Made by a program: the position numbers and the translations under genes. A stretch of 64,000 bases of DNA from Planctomycetota bacterium (GTDB lineage: Bacteria; Planctomycetota; UBA1135; UBA2386): positions 6,368,001 to 6,432,000 of the forward strand of contig OZ245838.1 of NCBI GenBank assembly GCA_965228735.1, read 5' to 3'. The notes beneath the pieces are model-generated. The model was not told the DNA's origin and searched no databases. It worked only from the letters and a program-made list of their open reading frames with translations. The first letter of the stretch is position 1. Every line of letters starts with the position of its first letter. Shown here one piece after another: positions 2,406 through 46,046 of this stretch.

Positions 2406-3506
2406 ATGCAGCTCATTCAACGAATGAAGATCTGGAAGGAGCTCAAGCGGCTCGAGATTCGAGTCCGTGAGGAGCCCTCCCCGACGACGTTCGTCGATCT
2501 GGGCCAGGTCTACATCAACCTCGAGAGTTACGACAAGGCGCTGCGCGTCGCGGAGGACGGGCTCGCGCTCTTCCCGAAGGCGAGCGAGATGAAGAAGCTG
2601 CTCGACACCGCGCGTCGCGGTCTCGGGAAGCAGCGCGCCACCGAGCTCAAGGCCAAACTCATCCGGTCGCCGAGTCCGAAGCTGTTCCGCGAGGTCGCGG
2701 AGCTGCAGATGGACCTCGGGGACGTCGCGGCGCTCAACCAGACCTGCCAGGAGTGGAGCCTGCGCTTCCCGGACGACGCGGGTGCGTGGCTACTGCTGGG
2801 TCAAGCGCGACTGCTCGGCTTCTACCGCGACCTCGCGGCGCGCGAAGGGCGCGAGGCGGTGCGGTGCCTCGACCGCGCGATCGAGATGAAGGGCGACGAC
2901 GAGCAGGCCCACCGGCTGCTCGGCGAGGTCCTCTACCGGGTCGGCGCCGTGAAGCAGTCGATGGAACACCTCGAGGTCGCGAAGGGTCTGCACCGCGGCG
3001 ACTCCGAGCTCGAGCAGCTGCTCAAGTACGTGGCCGGGCTCGAGGACAAGGGCATCGACGTCGAACAGCTGTTCGTCGAGGTCGAGGAGCGCGGCAGCCT
3101 GATGCACCCGCCCGCGGCGGCGGCCGGCGGCGCCGGCGAGATGGGCGTGACGAGCATCCGCGAGGCGCTCGGTCACATCGCGGACATCGAGGGCGTGACC
3201 AAGGCGACCTACATCAAGGGGTCGCGCGCGCTCGTCAAGGGTCAGATCAAGGACGGTCGCGACCCGTTCCTGCGGATCGTGCGCGTCATCGCCAAGGCGG
3301 CGCATCGCTTCGGTCGCCGGCTCGACATCGGCAACGCGTGCAAGAACGTCGTCGACGGCGAGTTCGGGCACATCTGCGTGTGCGTCTACGGCGAGGTCCT
3401 CGCCGGCGTGCAGTGTGAGAAGGGCACCGATCTCGAGCTCGTGCTCGGCGAGCTCCAGGAGATCGTCGCGGGTTCGCTGACGCCGATGGGAGGGACGAAC
3501 TCGTGA
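2406..3506 (+). CDS. TPR-repeat protein with C-terminal Roadblock/LC7-like domain
   Basis: N-terminal TPR motifs (DLGQVYINLESYDKAL, AWLLLGQA, AHRLLGEVLY). The last ~115 aa have a Roadblock-like alpha/beta pattern. Its stop overlaps the next start (GTGA). Confidence 0.7.
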   Translation: MQLIQRMKIWKELKRLEIRVREEPSPTTFVDLGQVYINLESYDKALRVAEDGLALFPKASEMKKLLDTARRGLGKQRATELKAKLIRSPSPKLFREVAELQMDLGDVAALNQTCQEWSLRFPDDAGAWLLLGQARLLGFYRDLAAREGREAVRCLDRAIEMKGDDEQAHRLLGEVLYRVGAVKQSMEHLEVAKGLHRGDSELEQLLKYVAGLEDKGIDVEQLFVEVEERGSLMHPPAAAAGGAGEMGVTSIREALGHIADIEGVTKATYIKGSRALVKGQIKDGRDPFLRIVRVIAKAAHRFGRRLDIGNACKNVVDGEFGHICVCVYGEVLAGVQCEKGTDLELVLGELQEIVAGSLTPMGGTNS

Positions 3507-3871
3507 AGTCGATCCAGGATGTCCTGAAGGAGCTGTACGGCAGCGGCGGGATCAAGGGGGCGGCGGTCGTCACGCTCGACGGTCTCGTGGCCGCGGGCGA
3601 GCTCGACGAACGCTTCCACTCCGACGTCGTCGGTGGGCTCGCGTCGTTCCTCGTGATGACGATGAACCGGAGCCTGCGCGAGGGTGGGCTCGGCGACTGC
3701 GAACAGTTCCTGCTGCACGCGACCCATGGCAAGGTGGTCCTCGCCGCACTGGGCGAGTCGTACCTCGTCGTGATCTTCGATCAGTTCGCGGACACCCAGA
3801 AGGTGCGCACCGATGTCGATCGGGCCGCCACCCGGCTGCGCGAGCTGTCGCGCCTCGGCTCGGCGAGCTGA
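3503..3871 (+). CDS. Roadblock/LC7 domain protein (MglB/MglC-like)
   Basis: 122 aa; GIKGAAVVTLDGLVAA and flanking helices fit the Roadblock/LC7 pattern; lies next to mglA. Confidence 0.85.
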   Translation: MKSIQDVLKELYGSGGIKGAAVVTLDGLVAAGELDERFHSDVVGGLASFLVMTMNRSLREGGLGDCEQFLLHATHGKVVLAALGESYLVVIFDQFADTQKVRTDVDRAATRLRELSRLGSAS

Positions 3872-4111
3872 CGCCGCCCGCCTCGCGGGCCGCCGGGCGC
3901 CTGCGGGCAAACCCGCACCCGGCGCCTCCGGTCCGGCTTCCGGGACGGCTGCGGCGCTGGTGAATCCGGCCGCGATCCGCCCCGCCGGCGTCTCAATCCG
4001 AGCGCACCTGCAACCTTCCTAAAGCGACGTTTCTGCGCGCGTCGATGAGGGATGTGGCGAGACGGTCGGGGGACCGTTCGACCACACCACCAGCTCGCAA
4101 CGGCTACACCA

Positions 4112-5098
4112 ATGGTTCAGATCAACTTCGCACTCAAGGAAGTCAACTGCAAGGTCGTCTTCTATGGCCCCGGGATGAGTGGCAAGACCACGAATCTCGA
4201 GATCGTTCACCAAAAGGCTCCCGAAGAGAACAAGGGCGAGCTCACCTCGATCTCCACGGACGGTGACCGCACGCTGTTCTTCGACTTCATGCCTCTCGAC
4301 CTCGGCAACGTGGCGGGCATGCGGACGAAGTTCCAGCTCTACACGGTGCCGGGTCAGGTCTACTACAACTCGACCCGCAAGCTCGTGCTGCAGGGTGTCG
4401 ACGGCGTCATCTTCGTCGCCGACTCCGATCCGGACAAGGTCGACGAGAACATCGAGTCGTACTCGAACCTGATCGAGAACCTGGCGGAGTACGGCAAGGA
4501 CATCCGCGAGCTGCCGCACGTCATCCAGTACAACAAGCGCGACCTGCCGAATGCACTGCCGGTCGCCGAGCTGGACAAGGCGATGAACAAGTTCGGTGTG
4601 CCGACCTTCGAGGCCGTGGCCTACACGGGCGAGGGCGTCTTCCCGACGCTCAAGACGCTCGCCGCGATGGTCCTCGAGAGCATCGAGAAGGTCGATGGCC
4701 GCAACCCGCGCAAGGCCGCTGGTGGCGGTGCGCGCCAGGCTGCCGCGGCACCCGCCGCGCCCGCAGCTGCCGCCGCGGCCGCGCCGGCCGCTCCGGCTGC
4801 CGCTGCCCCGGCCGCACGGGCGCCCCGCAAGGCGACTGCCGGTGCCGGTGGCCAGCGCAAGGGTGCAGGTCGCCGGTCGGCAGCGGGTGGCCGCGCCGCA
4901 GCGGGCGGTCGCGCCCAGGCCGGTGGTCGCGCTCCCGGTCGCCGCGCCGCGGCCGGCGGCCGCGCTGGCGGCAAACGCGCTGCGGCTGCTGCCCAGAAGA
5001 AGGGTGGCAGCATGGGGCTCGTGGTGGGTCTGACCGTCACGCTGCTGATCGCGGCGGCCGGTGTGGCCTACTTCTTCCTCGGTGACCAGCTGGGCTGA
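4112..5098 (+). CDS. mglA: MglA-family small Ras-like GTPase with Ala/Pro- and Gly/Arg-rich linker and C-terminal TM helix
   Basis: INFALKEVNCKVVFYGPGMSGKTTN, DRTLFFDF, YTVPGQ and NKRD closely follow Myxococcus MglA. The ATG at 4112 matches the family N-terminus. Confidence 0.93.
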   Translation: MVQINFALKEVNCKVVFYGPGMSGKTTNLEIVHQKAPEENKGELTSISTDGDRTLFFDFMPLDLGNVAGMRTKFQLYTVPGQVYYNSTRKLVLQGVDGVIFVADSDPDKVDENIESYSNLIENLAEYGKDIRELPHVIQYNKRDLPNALPVAELDKAMNKFGVPTFEAVAYTGEGVFPTLKTLAAMVLESIEKVDGRNPRKAAGGGARQAAAAPAAPAAAAAAAPAAPAAAAPAARAPRKATAGAGGQRKGAGRRSAAGGRAAAGGRAQAGGRAPGRRAAAGGRAGGKRAAAAAQKKGGSMGLVVGLTVTLLIAAAGVAYFFLGDQLG

Positions 5099-5109
5099 GG
5101 AGGCGACCC

Positions 5110-5622
5110 ATGGGCGACAAACTCTCGAAGAACGAGAAGCTGCGGTACGACCGCCTGACGTTCTACAAGGACGACATCGAGCGCATCGACAAGCTGCTCG
5201 CCGAGTTCTTGCGGTTGTCGGGCGCCAAGTGCGCGCTGCTGATCGACAAGGAAGGTCACCTCGTCACCAAGCGTGGCGAACTCCGCACGATCGACATCGA
5301 TACGATCTCGGCGCTCGTCGCCGGTTCGTTCGCGGCGACGAAGGAGATGGCCAGGCTGCTCGGTGAAGACGAGTTCACCGCGATGTTCCACCAGGGTGAG
5401 CGCGACAACATCCAGCTCTCGCTCGTGGGCGATCGCACTCTGCTGACGATCCTGTTCGACGATCGCACGACCGTCGGCATGGTTCGCCTCTACGCCGGTG
5501 AAACGGCGAAGAAGCTCGCCGAAGTGTACCGCGATGCGATGTCACGCGGTGACGAGACCCCCGATCTCGGTGACGGCTACGGCGAAGCGAGCAAGGGCGC
5601 GCTCGACAAGCTGTTCGACTGA
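5110..5622 (+). CDS. mglB: MglB-family GTPase-activating Roadblock/LC7 protein
   Basis: AKCALLIDKEGHLV, ISALVAGSFAATKEMARLLGEDEF, FHQGERDNI, LFDDRTTVGMVRL and the acidic C-terminal helix (LDKLFD) follow Myxococcus MglB; RBS GAGGAGG. Confidence 0.93.
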   Translation: MGDKLSKNEKLRYDRLTFYKDDIERIDKLLAEFLRLSGAKCALLIDKEGHLVTKRGELRTIDIDTISALVAGSFAATKEMARLLGEDEFTAMFHQGERDNIQLSLVGDRTLLTILFDDRTTVGMVRLYAGETAKKLAEVYRDAMSRGDETPDLGDGYGEASKGALDKLFD

Positions 5623-6101: not shown

Positions 6102-6260
6102 ATGGCTGCCAGAAAGAAGGCCACCAAGAAGAAGGCGACCAAGAAGAAGGCCACCAAGAAGAAGGCCACGCGCAAGAAGGCCACCAAGAAGAAGGCGACC
6201 AAGAAGAAGGCCGCCAAGAAGAAGAAGAAGGCGACCCGCAAGAAGGCCGCCAAGAAGTAG
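6102..6260 (+). CDS. 52-aa lysine-rich histone H1-like nucleoid peptide (KKKAT pentapeptide repeats)
   Basis: ATG..TAG translates to MAARKKATKKKATKKKATKKKATRKKATKKKATKKKAAKKKKKATRKKAAKK. It has an RBS, a downstream terminator and variation at synonymous positions between repeats. Too short for the ORF track. Confidence 0.85.
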   Translation: MAARKKATKKKATKKKATKKKATRKKATKKKATKKKAAKKKKKATRKKAAKK

Positions 6261-40916: not shown

Positions 40917-43900
40917 TTAGTAGTCGGGGGTCTCGGTACGGGGCATGATCGGCGGCAGCGGCGGTACTCGCGAACGGTCGGGTGCGCCCTGGCCGAAGAT
41001 GCGCTGCTCGGCCACCAGGTTGCGGAGGTGGCCGTAGAGGTGGAAGCTCACGAAGTTGCCCGCGAAGAACTCGACGAACGGCGTCACGAGCGGGTCCGCG
41101 CTGTTGCCGAGCAGGTTGGCCAGCTTGAGCTGGATGTCGACGTAGCCGTCGAGCCCGAGCGTGCCGTCGCCCTCCGCAGACAGCAGGTTGGATTTGACGA
41201 GCAGCCTCTCGAACGCGAGACGCTGTTCGCCGAGGCTCCAGGTCGCCTCGAGGTCGGTGAAGCGCGGGCGCTCCGGTGCGGGCATCTGCGCGTAGATCGC
41301 GGTGAAGAGCGGGACCGCGCCGAGGTCGCCGCGCTCGATCACGAGCGTGCCGTTGCCGACCGCATCTACGATGGCCTGGCCGTCGAGGCGGTCGATCCGC
41401 AGCGCGCCGCGCGCATCGCCGCGGTAGGGCGGTGACTCCCAGCCGGTCTTGCGCAAGAAGCTGTTCACATCGACGCCCTTGAAGTCCACGTCGACCTGCA
41501 ACCGCCCGTCCGGAGTCGCGGGGGCCGGCAGGGTGTAGACGAACGCCGGCGTCGCGGGGTTGCGCTGCCGGAACGTGCCCCCGTGCAACCTGGCGTCGAG
41601 GCCGTCGAGGACGAGCCGCTGGGAATCCGCCTGGAAGCGGCCCGAGAGCCCCTCGAACGGCTGGTCGACGAGTTGCAGCGAGGCGTTCGTCAACCGGCCG
41701 GCGAGGCCGCCGCCGCCGTCGCCGACCCGCGACTCGTCGAGCTTGACGTCGCCGTAGAGTCGGCGGACGCGCAGCCCGTCGCGGCCTTCGCCGAGCGTCA
41801 GCCCGACGTCCTGCAGGCGCAGTTCGCCGCTCAGCGTCGTCTCGAACGGCATCGAGCTCCCGGCGGGCGGCACGGCGAAGGCCAGCTTCAGCCGTTCGAT
41901 ACCGGCGCGGCCCGAGAGCCGACGGCCGGCGATCGACTGCCGCAACGGGCCGGCAAACAGTCGCGCGAGGTGCTCGTCGACGGGGAAGTCCGTCGCTTTG
42001 ACCGTGAACGCGACGAGCGTGCGGCCGTCGGGTTCGGGCGCTTCGGAGATCGTGCCGTCGAGCAGCTGCACGAGCTTGCCGCCGAGCTCGGCGCGGACCT
42101 CCTCGAACCCGATGCGCCCGTTGGCGACGTGCACCTCGCCCGTCATCTTGCGGGCCGGCCGCGGCAGGATGGCCGCGTCGGTGCCGACGTCGAGCAGGTG
42201 CACGACGATGTCGAGGTCCGCATCGTTCGCCGGCGTCACGCGATGCCGGCAGACGAGATCGACCGCGCCCGACGGCTGCAGGAAGTCCCAGGTCTCCTGC
42301 TCGAGCGCGCCGAGCGTCGCCAGCGCGTTGCCGAGTGCGTCGTCGAGCTCGAGGCCGCGCACGACGAGGGACAGGTCGCTGTCGGTCTGGTCGGTCGTGG
42401 CCGTGGCGTCCGCGGCCCGGCTCGCGCCCGGCTCGCGGTCCTTCTGGCTGTATTCGACGCGGCCGAGCATCGCGAGCTGTGCGGACGTCGCCGCGCCGTG
42501 GTCGAGCCGGCCGCGCAGCGCGTCGAAGTCGATGCGCATGGCCTCGCCCGAGCCGGTGATGAGGATGCGGCCGTTGAGGTCGCGGGCGAACCACGGGTCC
42601 ACCGCGAGCCGCAGTTCGACGTCCTCGACGTCGAGTCGGAGGTCGTAGTGAAAGCCGTCGAGGTCGGGCGCGATCGAAGATCCGGCCGCGGCGCTCGCGG
42701 GCTGCCACGCCCGCACGAAGCCGCTGCACCGGCCGCTCGGCGCCACGGCACCCCACGGCTTGTCGATGTCCGGCGCGAGTTTGCGCACGGCAACGCGCAG
42801 GTCCTCGTCGATCGCCAGGCCTTCGAGTTCGACCGCGACCTGGACGCCTTCGCGTTCGGTGCCCTCACTGTTGTTCGAGCCGGTCCCGTCGTTCTCGTAT
42901 TCGATCGGGAGCCGGCCGTGCAGCGTCACGCTGCCGTCGCCGTGGCGCCCGACGAGGTCGAACTCGGCCTTGCTGTAGTGCACGACGATGCTGCCGCGGA
43001 TGGCCGCGAGCTCGTACGGGAACTCCTGCCACAGCACCGCGGCGTCGCGCGGCGTGATCGTGACCGCGAACAGACCGTCGAGCTGCGACTCGGGCCGCAC
43101 GGCGACATCGACGTCCGCGTTCCCGCGCGGTCGCAGGCTGTCGTAGAGCGCACCGTCGTCGGTCAGCAGGTCGGCGAGCGCCGTGCGCAGCGCCGACGTG
43201 AAGCGTACGTTCTCGGCGCGGATGTCGAGGGTCGTGCTCTCCAGCGGCTCGACCACGGTGTTGATCCGGCCCGTCAGCGTGACATCGCCGCCGCCCGCGG
43301 ACTCCTTGATGCGCGCCGACATGTCGATGAGCTCGACGATGCCCTCGCGCAATCGCACCGTGCCCTGCGCGCCCTCGAGCGGCAGCGCGAATCCGATGCG
43401 GTGACCGCGCGTCTCGAACCCGCGGTAGGCGAGCTCGCCCTCGCGCACCTGCATGTCGAACTCGACCTTGCCGGTCGCGCGCTGCGGATCGCGGAGGAAG
43501 AACTCCATGTCGGCGCGGCCGGCGCGCGGCGCGAGCGCATCGACGATCTCGGCACCGAGGTCGAAGAGCCGCAGCGCGTCGAGCGTGTCGTCGTCGACCT
43601 GCAGGTTCTTGCCGGTCGCGCGCACCGTGTAGCTGAGTTCGTCCGCGCCGAGCGTCATGCCCGTCACGTCGACCGTGATGTCGATCGACCCGTCGGCCAG
43701 CGGCTGCTGGATCTGAGCGCGCAGCTCGCCGCCGTTCCTGCTGCTCCCCACGAAATCGATCGTCGCCGACTGCAGGTGGCGCGGCAGGCTCGCGGCCGCG
43801 AGGCGCGCCTGCTGGAGCTGGCCGCGGGCCTCGACCCTGGTCGTCATCGCGCCGCTCTCGTCCGGCGCGGTGCGGAACGTCAGCTCGAGTTGCCGCAGCG

Positions 43901-44615
43901 TGCCGGCGAGGTCGATCGGGTCCGAGAACGCGATGCCGAGTCGGCCCTCGAGCCACTGCAGGCACGCCGTCTCGAGCGGCCAGTTCGTGACCCGCGCCGT
44001 GAACTCGGTGGCGCCCGATTCCGAGTCGACGTGCCCCGCGATCTCGACCGTGGCGCCGAGGCCTTCGACGCGCGCGGAGCCCGTCACGACGAACGTCTGT
44101 TCGTCGCCGAGGCGCGGCGTCGCGGTCGCGTTCAACGCCGTGAGTTGGATCGGCTCGCGGCCGGGCGTGCAGCCGATGCGGACCCGTCCGTCGGTGATCG
44201 CCAGGGCCGGCAGGGCGCTCGCCGCGCGGTTCTCGTCCGGCGCCGTGGTCCGCAGCAACTGGGCCAGGGCGGGTGGGTTTTCCCCAATGTCGACCTCGAG
44301 GCCGCTCACGCCCACGCGCCGGAGGGCAACGATCTGACCGATGTCGAAGCTGGCATCGAGGTCGACCTGCGCCGCTCGCAAGAGCGGTTGTCCTGGGCGG
44401 TTCGGATCCGCGATGTGCAGTTCCCGCACGATGATGCGACCGGCGCCGAGGTCGAGCTCCGTGCCGCCGAGCGTCACGGGTGCGAGCAGGAGCGCGTCGA
44501 GCTGTCGCTGCACGATCCCACTCGCGGCATCGGAGCGATGCAGGACACTCCACGTCACGCCGCCGAGCGCGATCACGAGCACCAGGGAGTACAGCAGAAT
44601 GCGGCGCCAGCTCAT
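40917..44615 (-). CDS. Large AsmA-like (repeating beta-groove) envelope protein
   Basis: N-terminal TM anchor, about 1200 aa of beta-rich repeats, AsmA-like C-terminus. Confidence 0.7.
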   Translation of the reverse strand: MSWRRILLYSLVLVIALGGVTWSVLHRSDAASGIVQRQLDALLLAPVTLGGTELDLGAGRIIVRELHIADPNRPGQPLLRAAQVDLDASFDIGQIVALRRVGVSGLEVDIGENPPALAQLLRTTAPDENRAASALPALAITDGRVRIGCTPGREPIQLTALNATATPRLGDEQTFVVTGSARVEGLGATVEIAGHVDSESGATEFTARVTNWPLETACLQWLEGRLGIAFSDPIDLAGTLRQLELTFRTAPDESGAMTTRVEARGQLQQARLAAASLPRHLQSATIDFVGSSRNGGELRAQIQQPLADGSIDITVDVTGMTLGADELSYTVRATGKNLQVDDDTLDALRLFDLGAEIVDALAPRAGRADMEFFLRDPQRATGKVEFDMQVREGELAYRGFETRGHRIGFALPLEGAQGTVRLREGIVELIDMSARIKESAGGGDVTLTGRINTVVEPLESTTLDIRAENVRFTSALRTALADLLTDDGALYDSLRPRGNADVDVAVRPESQLDGLFAVTITPRDAAVLWQEFPYELAAIRGSIVVHYSKAEFDLVGRHGDGSVTLHGRLPIEYENDGTGSNNSEGTEREGVQVAVELEGLAIDEDLRVAVRKLAPDIDKPWGAVAPSGRCSGFVRAWQPASAAAGSSIAPDLDGFHYDLRLDVEDVELRLAVDPWFARDLNGRILITGSGEAMRIDFDALRGRLDHGAATSAQLAMLGRVEYSQKDREPGASRAADATATTDQTDSDLSLVVRGLELDDALGNALATLGALEQETWDFLQPSGAVDLVCRHRVTPANDADLDIVVHLLDVGTDAAILPRPARKMTGEVHVANGRIGFEEVRAELGGKLVQLLDGTISEAPEPDGRTLVAFTVKATDFPVDEHLARLFAGPLRQSIAGRRLSGRAGIERLKLAFAVPPAGSSMPFETTLSGELRLQDVGLTLGEGRDGLRVRRLYGDVKLDESRVGDGGGGLAGRLTNASLQLVDQPFEGLSGRFQADSQRLVLDGLDARLHGGTFRQRNPATPAFVYTLPAPATPDGRLQVDVDFKGVDVNSFLRKTGWESPPYRGDARGALRIDRLDGQAIVDAVGNGTLVIERGDLGAVPLFTAIYAQMPAPERPRFTDLEATWSLGEQRLAFERLLVKSNLLSAEGDGTLGLDGYVDIQLKLANLLGNSADPLVTPFVEFFAGNFVSFHLYGHLRNLVAEQRIFGQGAPDRSRVPPLPPIMPRTETPDY

Positions 44616-44858
44616 CGAGTGTCCCGATGGTAGCCGGCCGCGACAGTCAGGGCACGGTGGGTCGTCGTGATTCCGCGCATCATTCGCGCTGACACCCGCG
44701 ACACGAAGGCTCGGAATCGGGCGCCAAACGGGGTTTTCGAGGGGTTTTTGATTTGATGTGTGCGCGGGATGTTGTCACACTTCGCGCGAGTTCGCCGGTT
44801 TCCAGGCACTTTGCCGGGTTCTAGCGCGGACCGACACCAATCGTTTCAGAGACATACG

Positions 44859-45065
44859 ATGGCTGCCAAAAAGAAGAAGAAGGCCTCGAAGGGCCCGGTC
44901 GATCTCATCATCTCCAAGGCGCGCACGAAGGCTTCGGTCCGGAAGTGCAACGTCTCCTCGGAGTTCTACGGTGCGCTCGACCAACACGTCCGTCAGTTGA
45001 TCCAGGGCGCTGAGAAGCGCGCTACGCTGAACGGTCGCAAGACCCTGCGTCCGCAGGATATCTAA
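44859..45065 (+). CDS. Bacterial histone-fold protein with lysine-rich N-terminal tail
   Basis: MAAKKKKKASKGPVDLIISKARTKASVRKCNVSSEFYGALDQHVRQLIQGAEKRATLNGRKTLRPQDI. It has the NVSSEF..AL alpha2 start and the RA..NGRKT...D L2 motif of short prokaryotic histones. Confidence 0.9.
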   Translation: MAAKKKKKASKGPVDLIISKARTKASVRKCNVSSEFYGALDQHVRQLIQGAEKRATLNGRKTLRPQDI

Positions 45066-45147
45066 GACGCACCGCGTCGCCCGCTCGCGGCCTGCACTAG
45101 GTGGTGGGTCGAGGGCTTCGACGACGGTCTGCACGTCGTCCACTGTC

Positions 45148-45187
45148 AGGGCCCGGTCGATGCTCGGTTAGGCATCGATCGGGCCTT
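45148..45187. terminator. Long hairpin between the convergent histone and tsaB genes
   Basis: AGGGCCCGGTCGATGC pairs with GCATCGATCGGGCCTT (16 bp including G-U pairs). Confidence 0.55.
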
Positions 45188-45314
45188 GCTTCGTACCCGC
45201 GCGAACTGTCCGACCGGCGGTCGCAGTCTGGAGCGGAACGTGCGATATCGCGGTCGAATCGGCCGTTTGGGCCGCGCCTGCGATTTTCGTCGTGGCGCGG
45301 GCGAGAACGCGCGA

Positions 45315-46046
45315 TCAGTCGGCGTAGGTGCCCATGAGGTAGCGCGGCTCGAGCTCCGTCGTCGCGCACGGCGCGAGCACCTCGGCGAGTTCGCGCGTGA
45401 ACAGCGCGCTGGCGAACGCGGTCTCCGGCTGCGTCGCGATCACCGTCGCCCGCGCAGCCAGTCGTTCGCGCATCGCGGCGTCGAACCCTGGCGGCACGAT
45501 GAACGTGTCGTCGGCGCGCGCGCTCGCGAGCACGTCGTCGGTCACGAGGGCCGCGGACGGTTCGAGCTGTCGCAGCGCGCCGCCGTTGCCGGTCGTCGCG
45601 AACGCGCCGCAATGCCAGCGGCCGCGGCGGGCATCGAGGACGGGTCGGAGGCGGCCGCCGCCGGTGGGCGGTGGTGCGGCCGGCGCCGCGGCGGCGTGCG
45701 CGACGAGCGCGAGCGTGTCGCACGCGAGGACGCGAACCTCGCCGAAATGCTGCAGGAATCGCACGAACGTGAGCGCGATTCGCAGCCCCGTGTACGACCC
45801 CGGGCCGAAGTCCGTACGCAGCTCGACGAGCTGGTCCGGCGCGACGTCGTGGGTTGCGAGCAGGTCGGCCACGAGCCGTGCCAGATCGCCACGCTGGCCG
45901 GTCGGCGTCGACGCGCTGTGGAAATCATTCCCCAGGCGCAGGCACGCGCTGAACGCCGCTTCGCCCGTCGGGTTGCTGCCGCTGACGGCGAGGGCCGCGT
46001 CGTTCCCCGGTGCTCCTGTCGCGTTGCTGTCGCCGCGGCCGGTCAT
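45315..46046 (-). CDS. tsaB: tRNA threonylcarbamoyladenosine biosynthesis protein TsaB
   Basis: GPGSYTGLRI, LDARRG and C-terminal LEPRYL. Confidence 0.85.
   Translation of the reverse strand: MTGRGDSNATGAPGNDAALAVSGSNPTGEAAFSACLRLGNDFHSASTPTGQRGDLARLVADLLATHDVAPDQLVELRTDFGPGSYTGLRIALTFVRFLQHFGEVRVLACDTLALVAHAAAAPAAPPPTGGGRLRPVLDARRGRWHCGAFATTGNGGALRQLEPSAALVTDDVLASARADDTFIVPPGFDAAMRERLAARATVIATQPETAFASALFTRELAEVLAPCATTELEPRYLMGTYAD

Follow-up and report, generated by a model that had tools for sequence, protein, structure and literature searches.

The histone gene and its surroundings

The window, by which we mean the whole stretch of 64,000 nucleotides that was analysed, carries a short forward-strand gene whose 68-aa product has the features of a bacterial histone. 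The genes and features used below are as follows.

44859-45065 (+): gene of 68 aa for a predicted alpha3-truncated FtF-type histone, single copy in the genome
44847-44852 (+): purine-rich hexamer, separated from the ATG by 6 bases; putative, probably weak ribosome-binding site
44859-44897 (+): N-terminal tail, residues 1-13, with six Lys and no acidic residue, predicted to be disordered
44898-45062 (+): histone fold, residues 14-68, with alpha1 at 20-24, alpha2 at 34-57 and a one-turn alpha3 at 65-67
45018-45062 (+): FtF signature R54, N58, R60, T62 and D67 (tetramer interface and RD clamp), found in 87/87 unique close orthologs
40917-44615 (-): gene whose 1232-aa product has a hydrophobic segment at its N-terminus and matched neither Pfam nor NCBIfam
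ending at 45315 (-): tsaB (TIGR03725, 77 bits against a cut-off of 69)
6102-6260 (+): H1-like repeat ORF of 52 aa, built of pentamer repeats from K, A, T and R only besides the start Met, with no Pfam match

The histone ORF begins with the N-terminus MAAKKKKKASKGP, includes the motifs that the preliminary description had quoted, and closes with an RKT..D motif followed by one residue. As both flanking genes lie on the minus strand, it is indeed the stand-alone gene that the preliminary description had reported. Its in-frame start-type codons are ATG1, TTG47, CTG57 and CTG63, of which TTG47 falls inside alpha2. ATG1 is the only one of these upstream of the fold, so that translation has no initiation codon between the Lys run and the fold; this agrees with the earlier placement of the start ahead of that run. 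Initiation downstream of the Lys run was rejected, the next start-type codon being only at L47.

The host genome has 7.19 Mb and 69% GC and is 93% complete, and the GC fractions of the histone gene at codon positions 1, 2 and 3 are 0.56, 0.43 and 0.82. Compared with each of 10 relatives, the fold differed mostly at third codon positions (10/10). The family comprises 1539 relatives at E≤1e-3, and 25 columns are invariant across the 109-row alignment. The 68-aa histone gene is real, far beyond chance. A family profile search found no second histone gene in the genome, nor did a DUF1931 search, which is insensitive and missed the 68-aa histone itself. Pfam gave DUF1931 alone for this protein at E 0.092, below the cut-off, and NCBIfam gave no match. 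Some relatives do have a second, weaker histone-fold match (G032:C3:209231-209395, and genomes G078, G104, G117 and G127).

The purine-rich hexamer is the commonest upstream 6-mer and occurs in 21/87 orthologs. An altered anti-SD sequence was rejected as its explanation, both 16S 3' ends being canonical. Neither a sigma-70-type promoter nor a convincing terminator was found for the histone gene. The read data searched did not establish expression: one transcriptomic run contained a share of 0.21 of the sequence words from 44300-45700, four other runs of RNA or presumed RNA contained small shares, and a run of unspecified kind, which may be the source itself, covered the stretch without differences.

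The 1232-aa gene, whose product we presume to be 'AsmA-like' as a guess only, is divergent from the histone gene and adjoins it in 65/110 loci. On the other side, glmM, a YbbR-like gene and a diadenylate cyclase gene lie beyond tsaB. The histone has glmM nearby in 44/110 loci and tsaB in 30/110; all these neighbour counts include the own locus, and the flanks are short and some incomplete. The conserved neighbours thus point to a stable, vertically kept housekeeping locus. The histone is present in 23/24 genomes of the same family and in 34/41 related genomes, and a histone relative was found in 88/201 sampled Planctomycetota genomes. Close orthologs also occur in records titled Luminiphilus, Verrucomicrobiota, Myxococcota, Eiseniibacteriota, Krumholzibacteriota and Methylomirabilota (L012, L069 and others). 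Among them, L012 lies on a 3-kb contig, is nested among planctomycete sequences on the tree and may be mis-binned, while the remaining loci under such titles may be transfers. The host genome encodes three HU/IHF homologs, next to which the histone may be a minor nucleoid protein.

Fold and subfamily

The AlphaFold2 model, built on the 109-row alignment, has a mean pLDDT of 80, which drops to less than 50 over residues 1-3 and 5-8. In a sequence search of the PDB, the best matches were HTkC 9F2C (E 2.7e-5) and HLp 9QT0 (E 0.19), and no HBb chain was matched at E≤10. Foldseek ranked HTkC and HLp first and then HBb; its first nine rows all have probability 1.0, with E values of 3e-3 to 0.095, and no match fell below E 1e-3. 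VIA aligned the model with the alpha3 histones HTkC, HLp and HBb at Z 6.7-7.1 and an rmsd of 1.1-1.6 Å over 53-56 residues (1.1 Å over 54 residues for HLp 9QT0), against Z ≤5.0 for nucleosomal histones and all others. A Z below 8 is modest; the alpha3-histone matches are nonetheless clear of the remainder and cover the whole domain. Hence the histone fold claimed from the letters alone was borne out by the model, by both structural comparisons and by the PDB sequence matches. The truncated alpha3 proposed with it also stood (residues 65-67), while the start given for alpha2 did not: the helix spans 34-57, and N31-V32-S33 form loop L1.

Alpha3 histones are described as having a shorter alpha2 and an alpha3 of only 3-4 residues (Schwab 2024, PMC11390915), and by its model the 68-aa protein is an alpha3 histone in this sense. 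On the alpha1 face, DNA is likely contacted by K20, R22 and K24.

Since the monomer fold cannot separate an FtF histone from an HBb-type one (the model was tied between HLp at Z 7.1 and HBb at Z 7.0), the assignment to the FtF subfamily rests on residues. FtF histones are described as toroidal tetramers with K11, R41, N45, R47, T49 and D54 in D4GZE0; in HMM numbering the interface pair is R48 and N52 and the conserved alpha1 lysine is K16, and bacterial dimer histones are reported as being without the R48/N52 pair (PMC11390915). When 13 is added to the D4GZE0 positions, they become K24, R54, N58, R60, T62 and D67, all of which are present here. Similarly, R49/N53/R55/D62/F63 of HLp shift by 5 to R54/N58/R60/D67/I68. 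R54 is also aligned with R45 of HTkC, which has Glu at the N58 position, so the R/N signature is not absolute.

Conservation was followed in an ortholog set of 110 loci, 103 of them with a canonical start, which gave 87 distinct proteins including the query. K20, K24, R54, N58, R60, T62 and D67 occur in 87/87 of these close orthologs, and so does a C-terminus one residue after D67 (I68, then stop). The R and N of the tetramer pair were found again in 26/26 further loci across the phylum, these being the best new matches among the 88 positive genomes of the 201 sampled. In 11/26 of these more distant loci, 4-5 residues follow the Asp.

The alternative to be weighed here is an HBb/Bd0055-type dimer, which bends or coats DNA without wrapping it. 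Such a dimer would account equally well for the fit of the monomer model and for the RKTxxxxD motif, which is typical of dimers, and bacterial dimers occur in Planctomycetota too (PMC11390915). However, R54 and N58 are invariant here and absent from dimers; the sequence search matched HTkC and HLp but no HBb chain; and the protein is 39% identical to HTkC and 32% to HLp, but only 25-26% to HBb. We therefore regard the dimer as highly improbable. With R54 and N58 in register with HLp and invariant in the close orthologs, the 68-aa protein is, as judged from its residues, an FtF histone and a new member of a published family. It likely forms a four-subunit, DNA-wrapping ring.

HLp of Leptospira perolatii (PDB 9QT0-9QT2) is reported to be a tetramer by SEC-MALS, to wrap ~60 bp in simulations and to protect 35-72 bp from MNase (PMC12701072), and the same tetramer and ~60-bp wrapping would be expected of the 68-aa histone. 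Both proteins have the truncated alpha2/alpha3 fold and equivalent R/N/R/D residues, and the first seven residues of HLp are themselves unresolved in the crystal. HLp differs in being a 63-aa protein with a shorter N-terminal extension. Its gene is reported to adjoin smc and map in a genome described as having no other NAPs, whereas the gene found here lies between that of the 1232-aa, putatively membrane-anchored protein and tsaB-glmM, in a genome with three HU/IHF homologs.

HTkC of Thermococcus kodakarensis (PDB 9F2C) is the top match by both sequence and Foldseek, its R45 corresponds to R54, and both proteins end at equivalent positions; however, it is archaeal, has 59 aa, is essentially tail-less and carries the Glu mentioned above. 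HTkC is reported to wrap ~60 bp of DNA, and its R45A mutant to form dimers (bioRxiv 10.64898/2025.12.06.692711). HBb/Bd0055 of Bdellovibrio bacteriovorus (PDB 8FVX, 8CMP, 9EZZ) shares the alpha3-histone monomer fold (Z 6.7-7.0) and the RKT..D motif, but belongs to a class described as dimeric, DNA-bending and without the R/N pair. It has no Lys tail, the alignment with our model beginning at HBb residue 1-4. Eukaryotic core histones and Asgard nucleosomal histones likewise combine a histone fold with a disordered, basic tail at the N-terminus, but they have full-length alpha2 and alpha3, a nucleosome assembly (Z ≤5.0) and sequence-fixed tails with known marks.

The N-terminal tail and its resemblances

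A Lys/Arg-rich N-terminus was seen by eye in all 119 homologs listed of the 1539. Over the 87 distinct proteins, four of which have mis-picked starts, tails consist of 36% K, 27% A, 8% R and 8% T. In those four (L003, L045, L051 and L070) the start had been picked too far upstream; they were excluded from the codon, motif and tree counts, which leaves 83 orthologs with tails of 6-46 aa. High conservation is confined to the first five or six positions (A2 99%, A3 84%, K4 82%, K5 95%), giving a shared start MAA[K/R]K; the majority fraction averages 0.64 over residues 2-13 and 0.81 over the fold. Identical folds occur with different tail lengths. On a tree of the fold only (55 columns, with many forks unresolved), tails of at least 20 aa require 9 changes, at least 3 of which are forced by strong branches. 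The charge of the tail is conserved; its length and sequence are not.

The seven of 110 loci that were set aside include two cut by contig ends but with long Lys-rich tails, two with basic tails and atypical starts, one cut and uninformative, L048 with a non-basic extension and L109 without a tail. In the phylum sample, a basic tail of net +3 or more occurs in 23/26 loci, L143 being tail-less and L150 short; the script had scored 24/26, but the start of L153 was probably mis-picked. Close relatives of the query are over-represented in these tail sets. Thus the prediction that orthologs keep the basic tail held in the close orthologs and in 23/26 of the phylum sample. The contrast that the preliminary description had drawn with the tail-less Bd0055/HBb, and the rarity that it implied, did not hold: the protein is assigned to the FtF histones, in which such tails are already published as common. 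A report that most bacterial singlets are without long tails and that histones persist in Planctomycetota (Hocher 2023, PMC10627809) does fit the premise of the preliminary description.

The preliminary description had also called Lys-rich tails typical of eukaryotic and some archaeal histones. Of the sequence-fixed tail motifs of core histones, five of H3/H4 type occurred in 0/83 tails, and KAAR in 2/83. The tails are closer to bacterial H1-like Lys/Ala repeats, as found in the 52-aa ORF of the same window: 52/83 tails have a 5-mer in common with it, whereas 500 shuffles gave 24 on average and 39 at most; in this comparison kin are not independent, and the common start contributes. The longest tails have 12-16 5-mers in common with this ORF. 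BLASTP of the 68-aa histone against the 52-aa ORF gave no alignment. The comparison supports a bacterial H1-like sequence style shared by the tail and the ORF, not proven descent.

The same kind of Lys/Ala-rich low complexity with variable repeat number is described for Chlamydia Hc2, the LR domain of Streptomyces HupS and mycobacterial HupB, and the long tails of the histone orthologs are made of the same kind of pentamer. However, these bacterial H1-like repeats stand as proteins of their own or form the C-terminal domain of an HU protein, whereas the histone tail is a 13-aa N-terminal segment on a true histone fold.

Several further observations concern the repeats. Orthologs L059, L060, L078 and L104 have tails with 36-46 aa of the same Lys/Ala pentamers, and the start of the L059 tail is almost identical to that of the free 52-aa peptide. 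H1-like repeat ORFs of about 43-140 aa occur in relatives, and in 3/6 relative loci checked (L119, L121 and L122) the repeat ORF adjoins the same upstream gene (5110-5622). The 52-aa ORF likely encodes a second DNA-condensing protein of the lineage. Lys-rich pentamer repeats are also carried by a large protein at G000:C1:3121399-3124242 (+) and in L123, C-terminally in the latter, which we take to be topoisomerase I; repeats in this style are found on further nucleic-acid-binding proteins encoded by these genomes. The upstream cluster at 2406-5622 (+) encodes three proteins, one TPR-like, one roadblock-like and one a small GTPase that has an Ala/Pro-rich linker and, at its C-terminus, a hydrophobic anchor. 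To judge from translations, from which these labels come, it presumably resembles an MglA/MglB polarity module.

Codon usage bears on another alternative, namely that the tail has no chromatin role and merely provides an A-rich, unstructured start for translation initiation in a 69% GC genome. AAA accounts for 48/500 Lys codons in tails against 18/522 in the fold, 16 ATG-started frames in the genome have at least 5 Lys in their first 13 residues (some may begin at an internal Met), and a few orthologs are tail-less (L109, L143 and probably L153), all of which would fit an initiation role. Nevertheless, 90% of the tail Lys codons are AAG, tails reach 46 residues, well past the initiation region, and Arg is a frequent substitute for Lys (8% of tail residues), which keeps the charge but not the A-richness. 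An initiation role is thus improbable.

We consider it quite probable that the histone is an FtF ring homotetramer that wraps ~60 bp without sequence preference, with the Lys/Ala tail serving as a floppy, sequence-independent booster of positive charge. By analogy with HLp and HTkC, handshake dimers would close into a torus through R54, forming a salt bridge to the C-terminal carboxyl of the partner, and N58, and the DNA would run round a basic rim of K20, R22, K24, K61 and T62. The composition of the tails suggests that all four may neutralise entry/exit or neighbouring DNA in the manner of bacterial H1-like repeats, which would raise affinity and compaction. The histone would act beside the three HU/IHF-family proteins and the free H1-like peptide. 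The first five tail residues are more conserved than a pure charge role needs, which counts against the charge booster.

Possible modification of the tail and its significance

A further alternative, compatible with the FtF core, is that the histone and its tail form a regulated platform for acetylation or methylation that loosens or tightens the nucleoid, as in the case of Streptomyces HupS. The six tail Lys and the conserved MAA[K/R]K start would suit such a platform, but past residue 5-6 there is no fixed Lys register, and tail length ranges over 6-46 aa.

There are precedents for the modification of such regions. HupS, with its lysine-repeat domain, is reported to be acetylated in vivo, which lowers DNA binding and is controlled by CobB1 (PMC11229371); modification of HupB has been reported (PMC5931751), and Asgard histone tails are described as acetylated (bioRxiv 10.64898/2026.07.02.735847). 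The HupS and Asgard cases favour the platform. Our literature search, which covered the main texts of openly accessible papers, found no study devoted to the deletion, function or modification of bacterial FtF histone tails. On general grounds, a lysine-rich bacterial protein that is abundant is likely to be acetylated to some extent. If tail lysines of the 68-aa histone are acetylated, the effect would most likely be charge neutralisation and not a read code.

The enzymes encoded by the genomes point both ways. The host genome has two HDAC-family proteins and one SIR2-family protein, which favours the platform. These families are widespread in control genomes (HDAC in 9/14, SIR2 in 10/14), histone-free bacteria included, and their presence is therefore not specific. 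SET was found in 21/41 genomes, that is, in 20/34 histone-bearing but only 1/7 histone-free relatives. The co-occurrence leans slightly toward a methylation link and is confounded by kinship. In contrast, a Pfam search of the 93% complete host genome found no SET domain, a local profile made from the SET protein of one relative gave a best E of 0.06 there, and 13 other histone-bearing relatives are likewise without a SET match. Searches of the genome for bromodomains and chromodomains gave no match, but neither did their controls. No modifier gene was found beside the histone gene in the window. On balance, a regulated modification platform appears unlikely, and the charge-boosting tail on a DNA-wrapping ring stays our preferred reading.

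A more far-reaching proposal, which we judge quite unlikely, is that FtF histones of Planctomycetota bear an H1/Hc2-like, repeat-expandable N-terminal Lys module and so combine a core and a linker histone in one polypeptide, with condensation tuned by reversible, enzyme-controlled acetylation or methylation. If true, this would be a bacterial, independently evolved, tail-based chromatin switch.

The FtF family has already been described in the literature, as have its occurrence in Planctomycetota and its basic tails. Since family and tails are known and relatives occur in 88/201 sampled genomes, the single gene matters little. The wider interest lies in the function of the tail, and the natural series of tails of 6-46 aa on a near-constant fold offers a test set for whether tail-based chromatin control evolved separately in bacteria.
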